64,000 nt of DNA from Alphaproteobacteria bacterium (lineage in GTDB: Bacteria; Pseudomonadota; Alphaproteobacteria; SMXP01), in NCBI GenBank assembly GCA_965214255.1, contig OZ243948.1, forward strand, positions 516,916-580,915, in the 5' to 3' direction. The notes below the pieces were generated by a model, which had not been told where the DNA came from, searched no databases, and worked only from the letters and a program-made list of their open reading frames with translations. Shown one piece after another: positions 8,101 to 64,000 of the stretch. A program made the position numbers and the translations under genes. Each line of letters begins with the position of its first letter. The stretch's first letter is position 1.

Positions 8101-8979
8101 GTGACCGTAACCGTATCCGATGACTCGAGTAGTCCAAAGCTCGGCATAATTGCAGGCGAGGGCAAGTTGCCTTTGCTGATAGCGGAAGCCTATCGTTCAG
8201 CTCGGAAACCGTACTTCCTTTTGGGAATTGAGGGCTTTGCGGCAGAGGTGGATATGGTGCCGTTTGAGCATGCCTTGACACCGCTCGGAGCAGTAGGTGA
8301 AGCCATAGATCTGCTGAAAACTAAGAACTGTGGCGCGGTTGTTATGGCCGGTCGCGTCATCCGGCCTGATCTTCAGAATTTGCACGTCGACCGATTGGGT
8401 GAACAGTTGATCTCAAGAATCGTTACGGCGCCTCGGCGTGGAGATGACCGGATAATGAGGCTGGTGATTGAGGCCATTGAAAATGAAGGATTTAGAGTCC
8501 TTGAAATAGAGGATGTTTTGGATGGCCTTACACTGCAGGCAGGTGTTTTAGGTCATATTTCCCCCGGCGTTGATGATCATGGAGATATCGAAGTTGCCAT
8601 TGAAGTTGTCCGGGAAATGGGACATCTGGATATCGGCCAGGGGGTCGTCGTTAAACAAAGGCAGGTGTTGGCCGTTGAAGCAGTGGAAGGTACGGACGCC
8701 ATGCTTGACCGATGCGCCACATTTCAAAACACATCCGAGGACAAAGACCGAACGCCGTGTGGCGTATTGGTCAAAATGCCGAAACCGTATCAGGAACGGC
8801 GGGCCGACCTTCCCGTGATCGGTGTGACGACCATAAATAAAACGGCTGCTGCCGGGTTGGCCGGCATCGCAGTTGCCGCGGGAGAGGTTTTCGTGATTGA
8901 CAAGGACTCCGTTGCAAAGGCTGCCGATGACCATGGTATATTTGTTTTCGGATTGCCGCACGATAGAATTGACAGGTGA
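8101..8979 (+). CDS. lpxI: UDP-2,3-diacylglucosamine pyrophosphatase LpxI (DUF1009 family)
   Basis: 'LGIIAGEGKLPLLIAEA' N-terminus is typical of LpxI. It lies between lpxA and lpxB as in alphaproteobacteria. The track ORF (from 7858) overlaps the lpxA 3' end, so the start was placed at the in-frame GTG at 8101. Confidence 0.75.
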   Translation: MTVTVSDDSSSPKLGIIAGEGKLPLLIAEAYRSARKPYFLLGIEGFAAEVDMVPFEHALTPLGAVGEAIDLLKTKNCGAVVMAGRVIRPDLQNLHVDRLGEQLISRIVTAPRRGDDRIMRLVIEAIENEGFRVLEIEDVLDGLTLQAGVLGHISPGVDDHGDIEVAIEVVREMGHLDIGQGVVVKQRQVLAVEAVEGTDAMLDRCATFQNTSEDKDRTPCGVLVKMPKPYQERRADLPVIGVTTINKTAAAGLAGIAVAAGEVFVIDKDSVAKAADDHGIFVFGLPHDRIDR

Positions 8980-10196
8980 ACATTCCACCAAGATCTTCGG
9001 ACTCGTCAAACCTCGACCGTAAAAGCAAAGTCCACATCATGCTGGTGGCAGGGGAACCTTCAAGTGACGCACTTGGAGCGCAATTGATGTCTGCGCTTCG
9101 TTTGTTGCACAGCGGCAATCTGGAATTTTCAGGTGTTGGCGGTCCTGCCATGTCGAAACAGGGTCTCAAGAGCCTCTTCAATTTCGATCAATTTGCACTT
9201 GTTGGAATCACACAAATCGTCCAGCGCGCTCCAACCCTGCTCAAAAGAATTCGAGAAATTACCGACTATGCTCTCGCGGCTACACCTGACGCCATCGTCT
9301 TGATTGACAGCAACGAGTTGAATCAGAGGATAGCGCAAAGGCTCAAAAGCAGGGGTTTTTTGCGTCCCATTGTTAAATTCGTGTCGCCGCAAATCTGGGG
9401 AAGCCGCCCGAACCGTGTTTTCAAAATTGCGCAAGTCTACGATCATATTTTGACTTTGTTGCCGTTCGAGCCTGCCTGCTACCAAAATACTTCTTTACTC
9501 GCTACATATGTCGGTCATCCCGTCACTGAACGCCGTCCCCAGCCAGGCAGTGGCGTCAACTTCCGTAAAGCCCACAACATTCCACATGATGAACTTCTGC
9601 TTGCCGTATTACCCGGTAGCCGCAGGAGTGAAATCAGACTTTTGTTACCGCTTTTTATGAAAACGGTCGAACTGCTGGCGCAAACGGTCCCCCAATTTGC
9701 AGTCGTCGTTCCGACCTTACCTTCTGTTCATGACAGAATTGTTGAAGTCCTAAAGACTTGGCCGGTCCAAGCAATAGTCGTGGTAACTGAAGAAGACAAA
9801 TATGCAGCGTTCGATGCATCAAATATAGCCCTGGCCGCTTCAGGCACGGTTACTCTAGAGCTTGCAATTGCTCAAGTACCCATGGTCGTTGGATACAAGA
9901 TAGACCGGCTGGGAGCGATGATCTTCCGCCGTCTAATCATGGTTCGTCACATTACAATGGCAAACCTTATTCTGGGGCAAGAAATCATTCCCGAGTTTTT
10001 GCAAGAAAAGTGTAAACCTGAACTCATGGCCAGTGCCTTAGTCAAGTTGATAGAGGATGATACGGTCCGTAACGAGCAACTCGCTGCATTTGACTCCGTC
10101 ATTAATGAACTAACGGTGGAGGGTGAAAAGCCAAGCGTAAGAGCCGCGAGAGCCGTATTGGAAATCGCCGGTGTCTCTATTGTGCAAGCTAGTTGA
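8976..10196 (+). CDS. lpxB: Lipid-A-disaccharide synthase
   Basis: 'IMLVAGEPSSDALGAQLM' glycosyltransferase family 19 N-terminus. The ATG at 8976 overlaps the lpxI TGA (ATGA coupling); an alternative start is the ATG at 9039. Confidence 0.9.
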   Translation: MNIPPRSSDSSNLDRKSKVHIMLVAGEPSSDALGAQLMSALRLLHSGNLEFSGVGGPAMSKQGLKSLFNFDQFALVGITQIVQRAPTLLKRIREITDYALAATPDAIVLIDSNELNQRIAQRLKSRGFLRPIVKFVSPQIWGSRPNRVFKIAQVYDHILTLLPFEPACYQNTSLLATYVGHPVTERRPQPGSGVNFRKAHNIPHDELLLAVLPGSRRSEIRLLLPLFMKTVELLAQTVPQFAVVVPTLPSVHDRIVEVLKTWPVQAIVVVTEEDKYAAFDASNIALAASGTVTLELAIAQVPMVVGYKIDRLGAMIFRRLIMVRHITMANLILGQEIIPEFLQEKCKPELMASALVKLIEDDTVRNEQLAAFDSVINELTVEGEKPSVRAARAVLEIAGVSIVQAS

Positions 10197-56971: not shown

Positions 56972-57007
56972 ACGGTTAACGGAAACTGATTAACGGAATC
57001 CAAACGG

Positions 57008-57673
57008 TCATCCAGTACGCGTCGTCTGACCGTCGCCGTCCGCCGCGTCCGTCGGGTCCTTAAGCGACGGCCAATCGCTGAACGGGAAGGGTTTGTCCTC
57101 CCTGTTGTAGGTCAGATACATAAGAATTTCATAAACGAAGGCGCTCAGGTTCCGCCCGAATGTGAGCAGGCGTCCGTTCGTCTTTCCCGACAGCGCCATC
57201 GAAATGAATTGAAAGACGATAACGGTGAAGACCAGCAACTCCGCGAGCCCCCAAACGATCATGAACAGCAGCATGTAAAGTCCGCGCAGCCACGTGCTGC
57301 GCTTCTTGATGCTGTCCTTGAGATTGGATCGAGTCTCTTCGTTGGTCATGGCCGCCTCCTCTGACTCCGGCACCGGTTCCGCTTCCAAGGCCGCTTGAGG
57401 CGCGGTCAATGGGCCTTCGGCTTCCGGGCCGCCTGCTTGTATTGATCCTTGGTGAAAATGTTTTGAAATCTGCCGGATCACTTCCTCATATCGAGCCTTT
57501 GTGAAAATGTGGCGGGATCCGCTTCCGCAGCGGATCCCCTCCTTACGCATCGCCCGCCGCGCTGTTTTGGGCGTCACCCCGAAATGCGCCGCGACGTCCT
57601 TGGGCGTGTAGAAATCTTTCATCGGGTCGTTCGTCATGGTCACCTCTGCTTCGGTCTCCGGAGCGGACGTCAT
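57008..57673 (-). CDS. Fusion protein: N-terminal excisionase/MerR-type HTH (HTH_17-like) plus C-terminal two-TM small membrane domain (DUF4389-like)
   Basis: 'FYTPKDVAAHFGVTPKTARRAMRKEGI' resembles excisionase-family HTH. The C-terminus has two hydrophobic helices ('LYMLLFMIVWGLAELLVFTVIVFQFI', 'LSAFVYEILMYL'). The start overlaps the stop of the upstream gene (ATGA). Confidence 0.55.
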   Translation of the reverse strand: MTSAPETEAEVTMTNDPMKDFYTPKDVAAHFGVTPKTARRAMRKEGIRCGSGSRHIFTKARYEEVIRQISKHFHQGSIQAGGPEAEGPLTAPQAALEAEPVPESEEAAMTNEETRSNLKDSIKKRSTWLRGLYMLLFMIVWGLAELLVFTVIVFQFISMALSGKTNGRLLTFGRNLSAFVYEILMYLTYNREDKPFPFSDWPSLKDPTDAADGDGQTTRTG

Positions 57674-58356
57674 GTCGCGACTTCATAGAATATGCGTTTC
57701 GACTTGTCTTTGCCGATAAATTTCGCGGTCATCTTTCGGGCGGTGTCCTTGGTCCGGATGTTGTCGCGAAAGTGGGCGTGAAACGCCGAGAGCGCCGCCA
57801 GCCTCTCGGGGTCCGACTCCGGCGCGCATCGAACGAGCCGGGAGAAATAGGCGTCGAGATAGTCCAGTCCGCAGCGGGTCAAATCGTCCAGACGGGCGCG
57901 CGGATTGACGCCGAACACCGTCGCCTCGTGCCGGTACTCTTCCATCCAGTCGGGATATTTCGTCTGCACCGCGAACGGCTCGTAACCCTCAAGTATGGGT
58001 TCGAGCGGCGCGACCCATCGCGCCCGATAGGCGTCGTCCCGGAACGGCGTGCACACGTTCAAATGACAGATGACCCGGCGCGGTATCATCAGATAGAACA
58101 GAAGAAAAATCGGCGCGGCGACGGTTTCCGGCGGATAGAAAATCATGTTGAGCGCGTCGAGCGGCGGGACTTTGAGGTCGAAGTGAAGCGCCGTCATTTT
58201 GGCCAGATGCTCGGACTTCCAGTTGCGCGCCGAGATCTTCACCATCCTCAGGAACGCGGAATTGTCCGATATGTCCGGGTCCAGCGCCACTTCGGTGAGC
58301 GGCGTGTACCGGTCCGCCTTGTCGATGATTTCCCGCATCCGGGCGGTCTGGTCCAT
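57670..58356 (-). CDS. Hypothetical protein with a divergent ferredoxin-dependent bilin reductase (PcyA/PebA/HY2, Fe_bilin_red)-like fold. The catalytic Asp position appears substituted.
   Basis: Three regions align to FDBR signatures as recalled from memory. 'KSEHLAKMTALHFDL...LDALNMIFYPPE..APIF' aligns with 'FRKMHLELAKV..LDILHCVMFPEP..LPLF'. 'ICHLNVCTP' aligns with 'SAAIADLSP'. C-terminal 'RDNIRTKDTARKMTAKFIG...RIFYEV' aligns with 'QKNDKTRRVLEKAFG...QVLFDV'. The start is uncertain; an alternative is the ATG at 58387-58389 or the track start at 58452. Confidence 0.4.
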   Translation of the reverse strand: MDQTARMREIIDKADRYTPLTEVALDPDISDNSAFLRMVKISARNWKSEHLAKMTALHFDLKVPPLDALNMIFYPPETVAAPIFLLFYLMIPRRVICHLNVCTPFRDDAYRARWVAPLEPILEGYEPFAVQTKYPDWMEEYRHEATVFGVNPRARLDDLTRCGLDYLDAYFSRLVRCAPESDPERLAALSAFHAHFRDNIRTKDTARKMTAKFIGKDKSKRIFYEVAT

Positions 58357-58375
58357 GGCGGCGCCTCTCGCGTGT

Positions 58376-58600
58376 TCAAACCTCTTCATACAGGCCGCCG
58401 AGCAGTTGGCGATAATTATTCGTGTACGGACAATTCGCCGCCAGCGTCTCAAGCCGCGCTTCTATGTCGCGGTAGACGGTGCTTCGATCCACCTTGAGCG
58501 CCTCGGCGATCTGCCACACGCGCCAGCCCTTCAGCACGTGTTCCATGATCGCGTCGCGGCGTATCTCTCGAACTTGGCGGGCCGATACGGTTTGGGTCAT
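58376..58600 (-). CDS. Small stand-alone HTH protein (resolvase/HTH_7/HTH_23-type DNA-binding domain)
   Basis: 74 aa. 'GWRVWQIAEALKVDRSTVYRDIE' matches the resolvase-type HTH consensus (G...IA..L.VSRSTVYR). Located immediately downstream of the tandem repeat array. Confidence 0.55.
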   Translation of the reverse strand: MTQTVSARQVREIRRDAIMEHVLKGWRVWQIAEALKVDRSTVYRDIEARLETLAANCPYTNNYRQLLGGLYEEV

Positions 58601-58664
58601 GCGCGACAGTGTTGAGCGTCATGCGTCCGCGCGTCAAGGGGGAAGTGTCGCGGTTATTGCGGGG

Positions 58665-59200
58665 GTGTTTTGTCGCAGCCCTGGTCGCAAATCTGAACGG
58701 CGCTCGTCATGGCTAAACGCGCGCGATTCCGCCATGTTCAGGGGCAAACCGACTTTGCGACAGGGTTGCGCGTTGTCGCAGCCTATAGTCGCAAATCCGG
58801 ACGGCGCGCGACATCGCGAAAACGGCGCGATTCCGCCATGTTCGAGGGCAATTCGACTTTGCGACAGGGTTGCGCGTTGTCGCAGCCCATAGTCGCAAAT
58901 CCGGACAGCGCGCGACATCGCGAAAACGGCTCGAGTCCGCCATGTTCAGGGGCAAACCGACCTTGCGACAGGGTTGCGTGTTGTCGCAGCCCATAGTCGC
59001 AAATCCGGACGGCGCGAGTCATCGCGAAAACGGCGCGATTCCGCCCTGTTCAAGGGCAATCCGACCTTGCGACAGGGTTGCGCATTGTCGCAGTCAATAG
59101 TCGCAAGACCGGACCGCGCGCGGCATGGCTAAACGCGCGCGATTCCGCCCTGTTTGAGGGCAAACCGACTTTGCGACAGGGTCGCGCGTTGTCGCAGGTT
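58665..59200. repeat. Tandem array of about 5 copies of a 104-bp non-coding repeat, each carrying a TGCGACA-N11-TGTCGCA hairpin
   Basis: The motif 'TTGCGACAGGGTTGCG(C/T)' recurs at 58755, 58859, 58963, 59067 and 59171, an exact 104-bp period. Units 2-4 are near-identical. Units 1 and 5 share the variant 'CATGGCTAAACGCGCGCGATTCCGCC'. A period of 104 is not divisible by 3. Confidence 0.85.
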
Positions 59201-59344
59201 ATTTTCCGGACCGGCCACGCATTAGCGCGTCATCACATTCAAGGCTTGTGCGCGGATATCCTCGTTGGTATGCCAAGCACTGAAAGCCGCCGACCTGCCG
59301 CGCGGCCATGATGGGACGCAAGACTGGAGAAGAGACGACCGGCC

Positions 59345-61523
59345 GTGAACGTTCAAACGCACGAAAAACTGAAAGCCGGGATCTGGGACATCGCGAACCT
59401 GCTGCGCGGGCCGTACCGGCCTCCCCAGTACCGCCTGGTGATGCTTCCGATGGTCGTGCTCCGCCGGCTCGACTGCGTCCTGGAGTCGACCAAAGACGCG
59501 GTGCTGAAGCGCCGCGACGAACTCGAAGCGCAGTGCGTGCCCGAAGCCGCGATGGACAAACTGCTCGGCCAAGCCGCCGACCCGAAGCGCAAGCATCCGC
59601 TCTACAATATCAGCCCCTACACCTTCGCCCGCCTGCTCGGCGACGCCGAGAACATCGCGCCCAACCTCGCGGCCTACATCAACGGCTTCTCGCCGACCGC
59701 CCATTCCATCTTCGAGCGCTTCAAGTTCACCGATCAGATCGAGAAACTCGACGCGCACAACCGTCTCTTCACCGTGGTCAAGGCCATGGCCGGCGTCGAC
59801 CTTCACCCCGACCGGATCGACAACCTTCAGATGGGCTACCTGTTCGAGCATCTGGTGATGCGTTTCAACGAACAGGCCAACGAGGAAGCGGGAGACCACT
59901 TCACCCCGCGCGAGGTCATCCGCCTCATGGCCAACCTCATCTACACCGGCGAACCGGACGTCTACAAGCCCGGCATTTTCCGCAAAATCTACGATCCCGC
60001 GTGCGGGACCGGCGGCATGCTCTCGGAGTCCGAAAAACTGATCCGCGACCAGAACAAACATGCGAACCTCGCGCTCTACGGCCAGGAGTACAACGACGAG
60101 GCGTGGGCGATCTGCTGCGCGGACATGCTCATCAAGGACCAGGACACCGGCAACATCGTTCTCGGCGACACTCTGGGCGACGGCAAGACCGGAGACGACT
60201 TTGAGGGCTTCCATTATATGATGGCCAATCCGCCCTTCGGCGTCGAATGGAAGGCGCAGAAAGACACGGTCCGACGCGAGCACGAGACCTTGGGGCTCTC
60301 GGGCCGCTTCGGCGCCGGGCTGCCCGCCGTCGACGACGGCTCGCTGCTTTTCCTCCAGCACATGATCTCCAAGATGCACCCGTACAGGTGCGGGGGGGGG
60401 GCGTAGAGAGCAGCCCGGATCGAAGATCGCTATCGTCTTCAACGGCTCGCCTTTGTTTTCCGGCGACGCCGGATCGGGGCCGTCCGACATCCGCCGCTGG
60501 ATCGTAGAGAACGACTGGCTCGACGCCGTCGTCGCGCTGCCTGACCAGCTTTTCTACAACACCGGCATCTTCACCTATGTCTGGCTGGTGACCAACCGCA
60601 AGGCGCCGGAGCGGCGCGGCAAGGTGCAGCTTGTCGACGGCGCGCGCTTCTTCCGCAAGATGAAGAAGAGCCTCAACAACAAGCGCAACGAGATCGCCGA
60701 AGACCAGATCCGCCGCCTGACCCGCGTCTACGCCAACTTCGAAGACGGCGAGACCGCCGAAGTCCAGGTCGACGGCGAAACCGAGACCCGAGTCGTTTCC
60801 CGCGTCTTCGAGAACCGCGAGTTCGGGTTTCTCAAAATAACCGTCGAACGCCCCTTGCGCATGAACTTCGAGGCGTCGCCTGAGCGCATCGCCGGGCTCG
60901 ATGAGCTGACGGCCTTCGCCAACCTGGCGGCGTCGAAGAAACGCAAGGACGAGTCCGCCGCCGCGCGCGAAATCGCTGCGGGGCGAAAGCTGCAGGACGC
61001 CGTCCGCGCCCTGCTCTCGACGCTCGCCGAAAACGGACGATATATGGACCGGACGGCCTTCGACGCCGATCTGACGACGGCCGCCGAGCGCGCCGGCCTC
61101 AAGCTTCCCGCCCCGATCAGGAAAGCGGTCTTCGCGGCGCTTGGGCAGCGCGACCCGGACGCGGAGATCTGCCGCGACGGCGAAGGACGGCCGGAACCCG
61201 ACGGCGACCTCCGCGACAGCGAAAACATTCCCTTGCCGCCGGGAACGGAACTGCCCCTGCCCATGGACTTCGGGCCAGACCAGCCCAACGACCTGCTCGT
61301 CGAAGCGTTCCGGGACCATATCGACGCCTACATGGCGCGCGAGGTGCTGCCCCATATTCCCGACGCCTGGGTGGACTACGCCAAGACCAAAGTCGGTTAC
61401 GAAATCCCCATCAACCGGCATTTCCATGTCTACGAGCCGCCGCGCCCTATCGACGAGATCGAGACGGACATCGCCAAGCTCGAAGACGAGATCGCCGGGC
61501 TGTTGAAAGGGCTGAGGGCGTGA
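59345..61523 (+). CDS. hsdM: Type I restriction-modification system methyltransferase subunit HsdM, split into two frames at a G10 homopolymer (putative phase-variable gene)
   Basis: The N-terminal part (59345-60406) has the HsdM_N motif 'IWDIANLLRGPYRPPQYRLVMLPMVVLRRLD' and the 'NPPFG' catalytic motif. The C-terminal part (60453-61523 in the track, in frame from about 60402) has 'IVFNGSPLFSGDAGSGPSDIRRWIVENDWLDAVVALPDQLFYNTGI'. Removing one G from the tract fuses the parts. GTG start, SD 'GGAGAAGAG'. Confidence 0.85.
60392..60401 (+). repeat. Poly-G tract (G10) inside hsdM coding sequence; simple-sequence contingency locus
   Basis: The sequence reads 'gtgc' followed by ten G and then 'cgtag'. 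In the current frame it encodes 'CGGGA*'. With G9 it encodes 'CGGGRREQPGSKIAIVFNG...', which continues into the C-terminal HsdM domain. Confidence 0.8.
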
Positions 61524-62836
61524 CAGCCGAGTTCGAGCAGCGCTGGTTGAGCGATCTACAGCCCGACTGGACCGAGAGGCGGGCCGACTTTCTGTGCAAC
61601 CCTTACCGAGTGACAGTCGATCCCGAGATTTTTGGCGACGATCTAGTCGCGCACTACTCGATCCCGCAGGTTCAAAAGACCGGCGGACCGTTCATCGAAC
61701 CCGCAAGCGACATCGGCAGTACGAAATTACTTGTAACGGCACCCACCCTTCTGGTCTCGAAACTCAATCCAAGAAAGAAGACTATCTGCATCGCCGAACC
61801 CCACCCGGAGTATCCGACTCTTGCTTCGGGCGAGTTCGTCGCGATCATTTCCGACCAGATGGACCGTCGCTATGCTTACTATCTTTGGTGCAGCGAGAAG
61901 GTCACGGACCGGTTGTCCGCCATTGTTCAATCTGCCACCCGCTCGCACCAACGAGTGAACCCTGCCGACATCCAAAAGCTGCCGTGGAAATGGCCCCCGC
62001 TCGATATGCAGCGGCGCATCGCCGACTTTCTCGACGAAAAAACCTCGCGGATCGACGGACTGATCGAGAAGAAACGCGACCTTCTCGACCGGCTCGCCGA
62101 GAAACGCCAAGCCCTCATCACCCGCGCCGTCACCAGGGGCCTCGACCCCGACGCGCCGATGAAACCCTCCGGCATCGACTGGCTTGGCGACATCCCCGCG
62201 CATTGGAAGCGCATTCGTCTTCGCTGGCTATCCAGACGCTATGCCGGCGGAACCCCAAACACGAAGAACCCCGAATACTGGGACGGCGGCACCATACCTT
62301 GGCTCAAATCAGGGGCGGTGAACCAAGGCACCATTACCGAGCCTTCCGATCACATAACCGAACTGGCCTTGAAGGAATCCAGCGCGAAATGGATTCCTAA
62401 AGGCGCACTGGTGATGGCACTAGCCGGGCAAGGGAAGACCAAAGCAACTGTTGGTTTTCTTGGGATTCGGACAACGGGCAATCAATCGCTCGCCGCGATA
62501 GTCCCCGAGAAGATCGACGGCAAATACCTCTATTGGTGGCTGAGCAGTCAGTACCTCACGCTTCGCAATCTTTCGAGCCAAGATGGGCGCGACGGTTTGA
62601 ACCTGGATATGATTGGCAGCGTAGTTTGTCCGGTGCCCCCGCTCGATACGCAACGGCGCATCGCCGACTTTCTCGACGAAAAAACCGCACGGATCGACGA
62701 GACCGCAAAGCAGGTGCTCCGCTCGATCGAATATCTCTCGGAATACCGCTCGGCGCTGATCACGGCCGCCGTCACCGGCCAACTCGCGGCGGCGCAGACC
62801 GCCGACCTCGGCAACCTTTCCCCGCAGGGAGATTGA
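61520..62836 (+). CDS. hsdS: Type I restriction-modification system specificity subunit HsdS (two target-recognition domains)
   Basis: The conserved spacer repeats 'QRRIADFLDEKTSRIDGLIEKKRDLLDRLAEKRQALITRAVTRGLDP' and 'QRRIADFLDEKTARIDETAKQVLRSIEYLSEYRSALITAAVTGQL' flank two variable TRDs. The GTG start overlaps the hsdM stop (GTGA). Confidence 0.85.
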   Translation: MTAEFEQRWLSDLQPDWTERRADFLCNPYRVTVDPEIFGDDLVAHYSIPQVQKTGGPFIEPASDIGSTKLLVTAPTLLVSKLNPRKKTICIAEPHPEYPTLASGEFVAIISDQMDRRYAYYLWCSEKVTDRLSAIVQSATRSHQRVNPADIQKLPWKWPPLDMQRRIADFLDEKTSRIDGLIEKKRDLLDRLAEKRQALITRAVTRGLDPDAPMKPSGIDWLGDIPAHWKRIRLRWLSRRYAGGTPNTKNPEYWDGGTIPWLKSGAVNQGTITEPSDHITELALKESSAKWIPKGALVMALAGQGKTKATVGFLGIRTTGNQSLAAIVPEKIDGKYLYWWLSSQYLTLRNLSSQDGRDGLNLDMIGSVVCPVPPLDTQRRIADFLDEKTARIDETAKQVLRSIEYLSEYRSALITAAVTGQLAAAQTADLGNLSPQGD

Positions 62837-62840
62837 CCCC

Positions 62841-64000
62841 ATGCCCGGCCATACCGAACGCGATTTCGAAGCGGCGATCGAAGCCGAACTGACCGGCTCC
62901 GGCGGTTACGAAAAGCGCAATCCGGACGCCTTCGACGAGTCCCTCGCCCTCTTTCCCGACGACGTTTGCGGCTTCCTCGAAGACAGCCAACCGGCCAAAT
63001 GGCACGCGCTTGAGGCGCTGCTGGGGGCGAAGACCGCCGCCGCGGTTTTGGACGACCTGTCCAAGGAACTCGAGATCAAGGGCGCGCTGCACGTCCTGCG
63101 CCACGGTTTCAAGTGTTACGGCAAGACGCTCCGCATGGCGTATTTCCGTCCCAACACGAGCATGAATCCGCAAGCCGCCGAGAATTACGCCGCCAACCGG
63201 CTGACGATCACGCGGCAAGTGGCCTTCGCTTCGGTCATGAAGACGGCGGAGGGCAAGCCCCGCCGCTGCGTCATCGACGTGACCCTTGCCGTCAACGGCA
63301 TCCCGGTCGTCACCGCCGAACTCAAAAATCCGCTGACCGGGCAGCGCGCCGCCGACGCGATACGCCAGTACCAGGACGACCGCGACGGGCGCGACCTGTT
63401 GTTCGCGTTCAAGAAGCGCGCCCTGGTTCACTTCGCGGTGGACCCGGACGAGGTGTGGATGACGACCCGGTTGAGAGGACGGGAGACCGACTTCCTGCCC
63501 TTCAACCGCGGCAACGACCATGGGAGCGGCAATCCGCCGGTCGAGGGCAATTGGAAGACCCATTACCTTTGGGACGAGGTTCTGCAGGCGGACAGCCTCA
63601 TCGAAATACTGCAGCGCTTCATGCACCTCGAAAAGAAGGAAAAGCGGGTCGAGACCGGCAACGGCGCGCGCGCCGCAAGCAAGGAGACGATGATCTTCCC
63701 GCGCTATCACCAACTCGACGCAGTCCGCAAGCTCGTCGCCCACACCAAAGCCAACGGCGCGGGACGGAACTACCTGATCCAGCACTCCGCCGGTTCCGGC
63801 AAATCGAACTCGATCGCCTGGCTCGCCCACCGTCTGGCCGGCCTGCACGACGAGGGCGACGAGAAGGTGTTTCACTCGGTCGTTGTCGTCACCGACCGGC
63901 GCGTGCTCGACCGGCAGTTGCAGAACACGATCTACCAGTTCGAGCACAAGACCGGCGTGGTCGAGAAGATCGACGAGGACACGAAGCAGCTCGCCGCGGC
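62841..64000 (+). CDS. hsdR: Type I restriction enzyme R subunit HsdR, N-terminal part (3' end outside window)
   Basis: Own translation from the ATG at 62841 reads 'MPGHTERDFEAAIEAELTGSGGYEKRN...'. It later contains the helicase motif I 'LIQHSAGSGKSNSIAWLAHRL'. No stop before the window end. The ORF is absent from the track because it is open-ended. Confidence 0.8.
   Translation, partial: MPGHTERDFEAAIEAELTGSGGYEKRNPDAFDESLALFPDDVCGFLEDSQPAKWHALEALLGAKTAAAVLDDLSKELEIKGALHVLRHGFKCYGKTLRMAYFRPNTSMNPQAAENYAANRLTITRQVAFASVMKTAEGKPRRCVIDVTLAVNGIPVVTAELKNPLTGQRAADAIRQYQDDRDGRDLLFAFKKRALVHFAVDPDEVWMTTRLRGRETDFLPFNRGNDHGSGNPPVEGNWKTHYLWDEVLQADSLIEILQRFMHLEKKEKRVETGNGARAASKETMIFPRYHQLDAVRKLVAHTKANGAGRNYLIQHSAGSGKSNSIAWLAHRLAGLHDEGDEKVFHSVVVVTDRRVLDRQLQNTIYQFEHKTGVVEKIDEDTKQLAA

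Follow-up and report, generated by a model that had tools for sequence, protein, structure and literature searches.

At one end of the 64-kb stretch of alphaproteobacterial DNA analysed here (contig OZ243948.1; hereafter the window), positions 57008-64000 hold a group of minus-strand genes, an array of tandem repeats and an hsdMSR operon whose last gene, hsdR, runs off the window end. Our analysis suggests, with a probability of roughly 0.6, that two unrelated things adjoin in this region. The first, at 57008-58356, would be a vertically inherited pair of genes encoding an enzyme-like protein with the fold of ferredoxin-dependent bilin reductases (FDBRs) and a membrane protein of the DUF4389 family. 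The second, from 58376 to beyond 64000, would be a separate and variably present segment that carries an orphan helix-turn-helix (HTH) protein, the repeats and a type I restriction-modification (R-M) system.

A conserved gene pair next to a variable segment

The layout of the window is common to four contigs of the same species (L053, L056, L057, and L058; 94-97% DNA identity to the window), and one further relative, L049, comes from another species (79-86% identity). L058 is a contig of a public NCBI assembly, L056 and L057 are short-read contigs that end inside the repeat array, and only strains L053 and L058 show where the R-M segment ends on its far side. In L049 we found, in order, a TonB-dependent receptor, a spacer of ~0.6 kb, the FDBR-like gene, the HTH/DUF4389 gene, rlpA, dacC, and tmk, with no R-M genes, no repeats, and no gene for the 74-aa HTH protein that lies next to the pair in the window. 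The synonymous divergence (dS) between the window and L049 is 0.55 for the FDBR-like gene, 0.56 for the DUF4389 part, and 0.54 for dacC, and the corresponding ratios of nonsynonymous to synonymous divergence (dN/dS) are 0.12, 0.25, and 0.16; for the FDBR-like gene the ratio was 0.12-0.15 over the comparisons made. Because the pair adjoins rlpA without any R-M system in L049 and its dS matches that of dacC, we regard the FDBR-like and DUF4389 genes as vertically inherited core genes of the lineage; their dN/dS values show strong purifying selection. An initial annotation of this DNA had placed a change from core to accessory content at 57008, which does not agree with the arrangement in L049, nor with composition: there is no clear GC boundary at 57008, as the GC fraction is 0.56-0.62 over 57000-59500, 0.59-0.67 in the flank, and 0.56-0.66 throughout the region.

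The same annotation had described three co-oriented minus-strand genes as a translationally coupled trio that could form a single defence, signalling, or mobile-element module. The genes are indeed present, at 58600-58376 (74 aa), 58356-57670 (228 aa), and 57673-57008 (221 aa), the stop and start codons of the last two overlap as ATGA at 57670-57673 in the window, and the domain calls (a small resolvase-type HTH, a bilin-reductase fold, and an excisionase-type HTH) were right. Coupling of the three does not survive comparison, however, since the ATGA is not a constant feature (in L053 there is a gap of 46 nt instead, and the L057 and L058 genes were called from a downstream ATG) and the 74-aa HTH protein is absent in L049.

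A broader form of this idea would make the whole of 57008-64000 one accessory defence or mobile island, with the trio as a coupled cargo module working together with the R-M system. All three genes are co-oriented and closely spaced in this species and the layout is kept in four other same-species contigs, as such an island would have it, and yet L049 keeps the FDBR-like and DUF4389 genes by rlpA without the small HTH gene, the repeats, or the R-M genes, and the dS and dN/dS of the pair are core-like. Comparison of the rlpA locus therefore speaks for core genes in two of the three cases. The FDBR-like family also stands alone in 126 other loci: searched with tblastn, the 48 loci from genomes and 80 from metagenomes in which FDBR-like relatives are encoded yielded no homologue of DUF4389 or of the window HTH, and in the 46 genome loci whose neighbours were scanned with Pfam, the immediate neighbours are housekeeping genes. 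PADLOC gave nothing meaningful for the three small genes, only weak HTH-level matches (E 6e-4 to 8e-3), of which the one to mad1 (E = 6e-4) would speak for the island view. We found no FDBR-like relatives in viral contigs and no match to the 74-aa HTH protein in plasmids or phages, and the locus shows no mobility genes, tRNA, or target-site duplication. The locus does also collect a toxin-antitoxin pair in addition to R-M genes, so that the notion of a site where cargo gathers holds for the R-M segment, which is variable and has taken up PIN and RHH (ribbon-helix-helix) genes, and fails for the FDBR-like and DUF4389 genes. Taken as a whole, the single-island view is already largely refuted and we consider it highly improbable.

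Returning to the reading of two adjoining units, the second of these is delimited by L049, in which ~180-210 bp replace ~7.6 kb of L053 containing hsdR, hsdS, hsdM, an RHH gene, the repeats, and the 74-aa HTH gene. The flanks align on both sides (L049 7899-9271 with L053 1-1355, and L049 9485-10207 with L053 9233-9955), and the segment from 58376 onward is absent in L049, while the window, L053, and L058 share one layout. There is no integrase among the called genes of L053 and L058, no tRNA target, and no target-site duplication, only a 9-nt chance repeat at the junctions. Nor did we find tRNA genes or Rfam families at threshold anywhere in the 64-kb window, and a promoter/terminator consensus scan returned nothing exceeding the shuffled background. 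L049 retains an internally deleted SnoaL-like gene, ~20 nt that match the region of the hsdR 3' end, and the final 17 nt of the open reading frame (ORF) of the 74-aa HTH protein. Because L049 keeps these remnants, a deletion in L049 is as likely as an insertion in the window lineage; the R-M segment may be ancestral and lost in L049 rather than inserted here.

Between hsdM and the repeats, strains differ in what they carry. L058 has a toxin-antitoxin pair of PIN and FitA-like RHH proteins (8436-9113 of its contig), L053 has an RHH gene alone (8246-8488), and the window has neither (59265-59334).

The orphan HTH protein (58376-58600, minus strand; 74 aa) matches Pfam HTH_23 with 28.3 bits. Its ORF ends 19 nt before the ATG of the FDBR-like gene, and the two are probably co-transcribed in this species. 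It is present in all five same-species loci (window, L053, L056, L057, and L058) and absent in L049, so the small HTH gene follows the R-M segment and not the FDBR-like gene. Among 5.8 billion proteins, it has only same-species matches. This protein does not fit the type of R-M controller (C) proteins, which are small Xre/HTH_3-type proteins with a C-box operator upstream of their own gene, as it matches HTH_23 and homeodomain/resolvase-type models rather than HTH_3 and is transcribed away from the R-M genes.

An FDBR-fold protein that appears closest to PebB/HY2

The 228-aa protein encoded at 57670-58356 (minus strand) belongs to a rare proteobacterial clade, identified as FDBR-like by PF05996, AlphaFold2 (AF2), and Foldseek and marked by conserved residues N70, H98, N100, and D204. 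Its match to Fe_bilin_red (PF05996) scores 52.2 bits (gathering threshold 31; E = 8e-14) over residues 41-256 of a 260-aa version of the ORF, and every homologue carries the same domain. Because the full-length homologues are all ~228 aa long, we place the start at the MDQ codons at 58356, 7 nt upstream of which lies a GAGAGG Shine-Dalgarno sequence. The AF2 model, which was built from a family alignment of 37 sequences (A1), reached a pLDDT of 93.8 and a pTM of 0.91, and the top Foldseek matches in the PDB were Guillardia theta PEBB (GtPEBB), PebA, tomato HY2, and PcyA. The TM-scores were 0.83-0.88 (E 1e-13 to 1e-11) to PebB, PebA, and HY2 and 0.75-0.81 (E ~1e-10) to PcyA, with red chlorophyll catabolite reductase (RCCR) as well as coproporphyrinogen oxidase (CPO) below the FDBRs in the list. 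At the level of a predicted structure, the alpha/beta/alpha sandwich fold of FDBRs is thereby confirmed, as the initial annotation had supposed.

The family profile scored 59.5 bits against GtPEBB, its best sequence match among FDBRs of solved structure, 32 against PebA, 31 against HY2, and ~23 against PcyA, with no match to PcyX, and PebB models rank first in NCBIfam. Since these profile scores favour PebB, the clade appears to be closer to PebB/HY2 than to the pre-PcyA/PcyA side of the family described in PMC10151467 and PMC13446030. Compared with PebB and HY2 themselves (G. theta PEBB, PDB 6qwq/6qx6; tomato HY2, 6kme), the protein shares the fold and retains the C-terminal Asp at the position of A-ring reduction. 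It differs from them in its low identity (only 13-18%), in an Asn (N100) in place of the central Asp, in an invariant H98, and in its setting, as the hosts are non-photosynthetic Proteobacteria with no heme oxygenase, PebA, or phycobiliprotein context. H98, N100, and D204 are invariant in the 37 sequences of the alignment, and in hidden Markov model (HMM) alignments D204 falls on the C-terminal Asp of PebB, PebA, and HY2 (EKDPARG, ERDPAHG, and EKDPGHG motifs). The Asp of this C-terminal helix (Asp206 in PebS, Asp256 in HY2) has been linked to A-ring reduction (PMC10151467; PMC13446030, Table 2). At the position of His88, members of the clade have Asn or Thr.

From these features we infer that the protein would bind a linear tetrapyrrole in the cytosol and would probably catalyse an A-ring-type reduction with two electrons. 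We hold this view of a cytosolic tetrapyrrole-binding enzyme, probably a two-electron bilin reductase, only tentatively and at somewhat less than even odds. Several observations speak against it. The central proton-donating Asp (Asp105 in PcyA and PebS) is absent, with N100 aligned in its place in the PebB, PebA, and HY2 alignments and H98 two residues earlier. The mapping of the active site depends on HMM alignments, of which the one to PcyA is off by one residue. None of the neighbourhoods examined showed a heme oxygenase, a ferredoxin, or a bilin acceptor near the FDBR-like gene, and the link to TonB-dependent uptake is thin, consisting of the receptor gene in the window lineage, a TonB_C protein in the lineage of L050, and 3 of the 46 gammaproteobacterial loci. 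On the first of these points, Table 2 of PMC13446030 lists Arabidopsis HY2 as likewise having an Asn at the position of Asp105, and that enzyme is active.

The pre-PcyA proteins (pre-1 to pre-3) offer a second comparison. Like them, the clade described here is an FDBR family in non-photosynthetic bacteria, with non-canonical active-site residues and Asn or Thr at the position of His88. The genes of pre-PcyA proteins cluster with those for heme oxygenase, an Fe-S protein, V4R proteins, and BBAG globins, or for a B12-binding protein and a globin (PMC10151467). In contrast, none of these cluster partners was seen in the window lineage, in L050 and L052, or in the 46 scanned loci, and the score against PcyA (~23 bits) is the lowest of those obtained.

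The family is small, with 39 clusters among 5.8 billion proteins and ~30 representative clusters with E < 1e-30 among 1.84 billion proteins. Its carriers are mostly uncultured Gammaproteobacteria together with two Oceanicoccus species, and a literature search for the accessions of the cultured members (WP_085757498 of Oceanicoccus sagamiensis and WP_101759046 of Oceanicoccus sp.) returned no mention. Two further uncharacterised FDBR clades are mentioned in PMC13193486, and the present clade may be one of them. We consider this clade, a variant within a known enzyme family that has yet to be characterised, the most worthwhile part of the locus.

Genomic neighbourhoods of the FDBR-like genes

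In the 46 scanned loci, a molybdopterin oxidoreductase is the commonest neighbour of the FDBR-like gene (15/46), followed by major facilitator superfamily (MFS) transporters and decarboxylases. The oxidoreductase has 920-930 aa and a twin-arginine translocation (Tat) signal, and in these 15 gammaproteobacterial loci, which include L005, L011, L018-L020, L028-L030, L043, and L045, its gene lies directly upstream on the same strand. Heme oxygenase and defence genes were absent among the commonest Pfam families of the immediate neighbours in the 46 loci, a scan that did not extend to whole genomes. In the 10-kb flanks of the window-lineage loci, and likewise in L050 and L052, there is no heme oxygenase, phycobiliprotein, phytochrome, or BBAG, so the initial remark that a heme oxygenase partner is lacking holds for the sequence examined.

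A TonB-dependent receptor adjoins the cluster in the window lineage; NCBIfam assigns it to the siderophore type with a score below cut-off. The 228-aa protein might act on tetrapyrrole breakdown products imported through this adjoining receptor. The L053 receptor was called as a 604-aa protein with an N-terminus unlike those of the 795-aa L049 and 784-aa L058 proteins, though the DNA aligns, and it may be a pseudogene or an assembly error.

Another lineage (L050, L052, L060, and L061) encodes FDBR-like proteins that are 58-61% identical, within a conserved gene cluster (L050 9696-13794; L052 8820-13120). The cluster also encodes a 66-aa lipoprotein, a Tat-signal protein with two paralogues, a PvdO-like protein of the FGE-sulfatase family, a TonB protein, and a signal-peptide-bearing protein resembling coproporphyrinogen oxidase (a sub-threshold match), and a ChuX/HutX gene lies ~10 kb away. 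We considered a SnoaL-like partner common to this cluster and the window lineage and dropped it, as there was no detectable similarity.

A bolder proposal, which we would rate as unlikely, has two independent parts: that the 228-aa protein represents an ancient FDBR lineage of non-photosynthetic marine Proteobacteria, perhaps of a pre-PebB/HY2 type, which does without a dedicated heme oxygenase, and that the G10 tract of hsdM (described below) is read by programmed slippage. Enzymes of a pre-PebB/HY2 type are something that the field has wished to find, according to the discussion of PMC13446030.

The HTH-DUF4389 gene

The gene downstream of the FDBR-like gene (57008-57673, minus strand; 221 aa) encodes a winged HTH (wHTH), a linker, and a DUF4389 domain, as recognised by Pfam, PHROG, and AF2. 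DUF4389 (PF14333) is matched with 90.9 bits (gathering threshold 25) at residues 125-199 and its conserved STWLR...LTYN.E..PFPF motifs are present, as in the usual members of the family. Unlike these, which are proteins of 120-135 aa that stand alone without an HTH (alignment A2), the window protein has the wHTH fused N-terminally, in frame, through an acidic linker, and this fusion was seen only in this species. The HTH itself is matched by PHROG 66 (excisionase; E = 4.6e-7) and, below threshold, by HTH_17 (23.3 bits). In the AF2 model, the wHTH occupies residues 21-74 (pLDDT ~90) and is followed by the disordered acidic linker and a long hydrophobic helix at 125-162. The initial description of an excisionase-type HTH joined to two transmembrane segments was correct for the HTH and for membrane association, but two spans are not confirmed, since there is a single hydrophobic stretch of 35 residues (129-163), which supports membrane insertion, and an amphipathic helix.

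The DUF4389 part is served by an internal ATG at 57352 with its own Shine-Dalgarno sequence (GAGGAGG), and L049 has an equivalent AAGGAGG and ATG; the full ORF also has an alternative start, an ATG at 57637 (MTNDP...). The HTH part is fast-evolving (dN/dS ~0.6), and its L049 counterpart, linker included, is interrupted by a stop codon and frame changes. Since it is disrupted in the sister species, where DUF4389 retains a separate start, we take the HTH to be a lineage-specific, dispensable addition. Between the window and L053, the HTH-linker shows 46-49% protein identity and a dS of 0.95, against 100% identity for the DUF4389 part and a dS of 0.06 for the flanks. The divergent piece corresponds to window 57386-57640 and L053 9985-10300, in strains that are otherwise 97% identical in DNA, and the window allele is closer to that of L049 (73% over 52 residues). 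Given a dS of 0.95 against 0.06 in the flanks, this looks like replacement of the HTH-linker allele by recombination. We also looked at whether DUF4389 homologues elsewhere lie beside FDBR-like genes, and dropped the idea because this is not so in L054 and L055.

These observations bear on another account of the pair, in which the FDBR-like protein is a non-enzymatic tetrapyrrole sensor or carrier that signals to the membrane-tethered HTH-DUF4389 regulator encoded downstream. A membrane-anchored DNA-binding protein is indeed encoded immediately downstream of it, and yet no other locus of the family has that partner. Its HTH part, moreover, evolves fast, is exchanged among strains, and is disrupted in L049, and DUF4389 has a ribosome-binding site and start of its own. 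The replacement of the central catalytic Asp by Asn would also suit a sensor, and PMC13446030 describes pre-3 variants of FDBRs that gained binding of cyclic tetrapyrroles; however, the invariant H98, N100, and D204 together with a dN/dS of 0.12 look like an active site, and the Asn of the active Arabidopsis HY2 listed in that paper weakens the argument from the missing Asp. We regard a sensor as rather improbable, and an enzyme, with the uncertainty given above, as the reading to be preferred.

The type I R-M operon and its G10 tract

The variable segment contains a divergent hsdMSR operon on the plus strand. The gene hsdM (59345-61523) is split into two frames, 59345-60406 and 60453-61523, which carry HsdM_N and N6_Mtase domains in Pfam; hsdS (61520-62836) encodes two target-recognition domains (TRDs), with Methylase_S in two stretches and a PADLOC Specificity_I score of 299 bits; and the 5' part of hsdR (62841-64000, 386 codons; HSDR_N, ResIII, and SWI2_SNF2 domains, TIGR00348) continues past the end of the window, with a full orthologue of 1027 aa in L058. 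This is a type I R-M system with HsdM, a two-TRD HsdS, and HsdR in one operon, in which the frame of hsdM is not intact. The two halves of hsdM match the PADLOC MTase_I model PDLC03029 at 2-344 and 356-659 of its 661 positions. As the initial annotation had noticed, the interruption is caused by a tract of ten G residues (60392-60401, plus strand), which is the longest homopolymer in the window; G9 or G12 would give a single hsdM ORF of 725-726 codons.

The G10 tract puts hsdM out of frame (OFF) in 3/3 strains, in two registers. For the window and L058, where the sequence reads AGGTGC-G10, G9 or G12 would restore the frame; for L053, which has ACA-G10, it would take G8 or G11. Once repaired in this way, hsdM has no other lesion in 725 codons in any of the three strains, and its dN/dS is 0.14-0.34 overall and 0.22-0.28 downstream of the tract, with 0.19 for hsdR. 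Due to this purifying selection and the absence of any other lesion, it appears that hsdM is still read in the correct frame often enough for selection to act. The expression of hsdM would then depend on the length of the G tract, with G10 OFF and G9 or G12 ON in the window strain, and either slipped-strand mutation would switch the gene or slippage in transcription or translation would rescue it. The tract fits reversible switching or slippage and not decay.

An alternative is that the frameshift comes from miscalling of the homopolymer during sequencing, or from a mutation that has inactivated hsdM as the R-M system dies out. In favour of it, three assemblies out of three are OFF with the same G10 length and at least one of them (L053) has long-read-style contig names, but the break recurs in independent samples and assemblers, including L058, and it does so in two registers (G9/G12 in the window and L058, G8/G11 in L053). 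By chance, too, such a tract would not be exceedingly rare, since ~0.7 G or C runs of 10 are expected in 64 kb at 62% GC (an estimate under an independent-base model). Against this, GGG makes up only 21% of the Gly codons, and decay is hard to reconcile with the lack of any other stop or frameshift in 725 codons, with a dN/dS of 0.22-0.28 downstream of the tract, and with a dN/dS of 0.19 in hsdR. Error or decay therefore seems unlikely to us, if slightly less so than the alternatives raised for the other parts of the locus. With switching or slippage as the preferred account, it is still odd, and counts against mutational switching, that a supposedly hypermutable tract has the same length of 10 in three strains; the tract may be read by programmed slippage rather than switched by mutation.

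Phase-variable type I systems, such as those with the hsdM genes of H. influenzae and M. haemolytica, provide a precedent. In a survey of hsdM genes of type I systems that contain simple sequence repeats (Atack et al. 2019, PMC7383803), hsd genes counted as potentially phase-variable if the ORF held a mononucleotide tract of 9 or more, with a repeat unit whose length is not a multiple of 3; 2% of the hsdM genes in REBASE qualified, and most tracts lay in the 5' region. The hsdM of the window resembles these genes in that a repeat tract inside the gene sets the frame, and at G10 it exceeds the threshold of 9. It differs in the position of the tract, near codon 350 of 725, in its uncultured environmental host, and in that all strains are OFF and all have G10.

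In hsdS, TRD1 (window 61524-62015) does not align to either L053 or L058, and the rest of the operon is 94-96% identical. Because TRD1 differs, the strains should differ in specificity. Two antisense ORFs overlap the operon, at 59222-60490 (minus strand, 422 aa) across hsdM and at 62772-63947 (minus strand, 391 aa) across hsdR; these are shadow ORFs of high-GC DNA and not genes, and the gene caller annotated such ORFs in place of hsdR in L053.

The 104-bp repeat array

Between the orphan HTH gene and hsdM lies a tandem array (58670-59197) with a unit of 104 bp in 5.1 copies (Tandem Repeats Finder, 87% matches). Copy number differs among strains (window, 5.1; L058, 4.1; L053, 3.1), and the 14 copies that we aligned are 90% identical on average. 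The longest invariant runs of the unit are TGTCGCAG, GTCGCAA, and, inverted, TTGCGACAGG, all three of which contain the same heptamer; of the three invariant blocks with GTCGCA, two are direct and one is inverted, and the unit junctions each form TGCGACA-N11-TGTCGCA. The array had been described as tandem hairpin repeats, and its size, copy number, and imperfect palindromic character are borne out, while a role for the hairpin is not, for lack of compensatory changes.

If the array were a structured RNA, or belonged to the common dispersed palindromic elements (REP, RIME, or MITE) and had nothing to do with its neighbours, this would account for the folding of each unit into an extended, imperfect hairpin (-41 to -44 kcal/mol, z -1.5 to -2.4) and for a hairpin model in which 83% of the cells of the 14-copy alignment pair. 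Nevertheless, RNAalifold and an explicit count of pairs detected no compensatory change in the hairpin over the 14 copies, and variation in the inner stem breaks pairs; Rfam gave no match to the repeats, even at a permissive E-value on the intergenic region and the whole window; and no further copy was found in the 64-kb window, in ~0.9 Mb of relative loci, or, with the junction pattern, in metagenome and viral collections. In addition, the conserved parts of the unit are three copies of one heptamer. We dropped the RNA-structure reading as no compensatory pair was found, and we judge this whole alternative decidedly improbable.

With no covariation, no Rfam match, and no copy elsewhere, a role at the level of DNA is favoured. 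The array would consist of protein-binding sites at a spacing of 104 bp, about ten helical turns, and the neighbouring 74-aa HTH protein would be the candidate to bind them. On the other hand, recent duplication or gene conversion could also account for the invariance of the blocks, which weakens the case for binding sites. Arrays of operators or iterons next to genes for small DNA-binding proteins are familiar from plasmid iterons and centromere-like sites. The array described here resembles these in its tandem repeats with short conserved motifs, in the inverted pair at each junction, and in its position beside a small HTH gene and between divergent operons. It differs in its unusually long unit of 104 bp and in having no replication or partition genes nearby.

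Significance for the lineage and the FDBR family

The R-M part of the locus is ordinary defence biology, as R-M systems, toxin-antitoxin pairs, and poly-G tracts are all of known kinds, and adjacency to it did not make the neighbouring genes island cargo. Within it, three strains with the same G10 and a maintained frame make a clean natural case for distinguishing homopolymer switching from slippage in hsdM. The FDBR-like protein has wider implications. If it is not a reductase, the FDBR fold would have been recruited for some other tetrapyrrole-related job. If its clade does reduce bilins, the FDBR tree would gain a branch on the PebB/HY2 side, whereas the ancestors described to date belong to PcyA alone, and bilin metabolism would reach into heterotrophic marine Alpha- and Gammaproteobacteria lacking any photoreceptor or antenna context.

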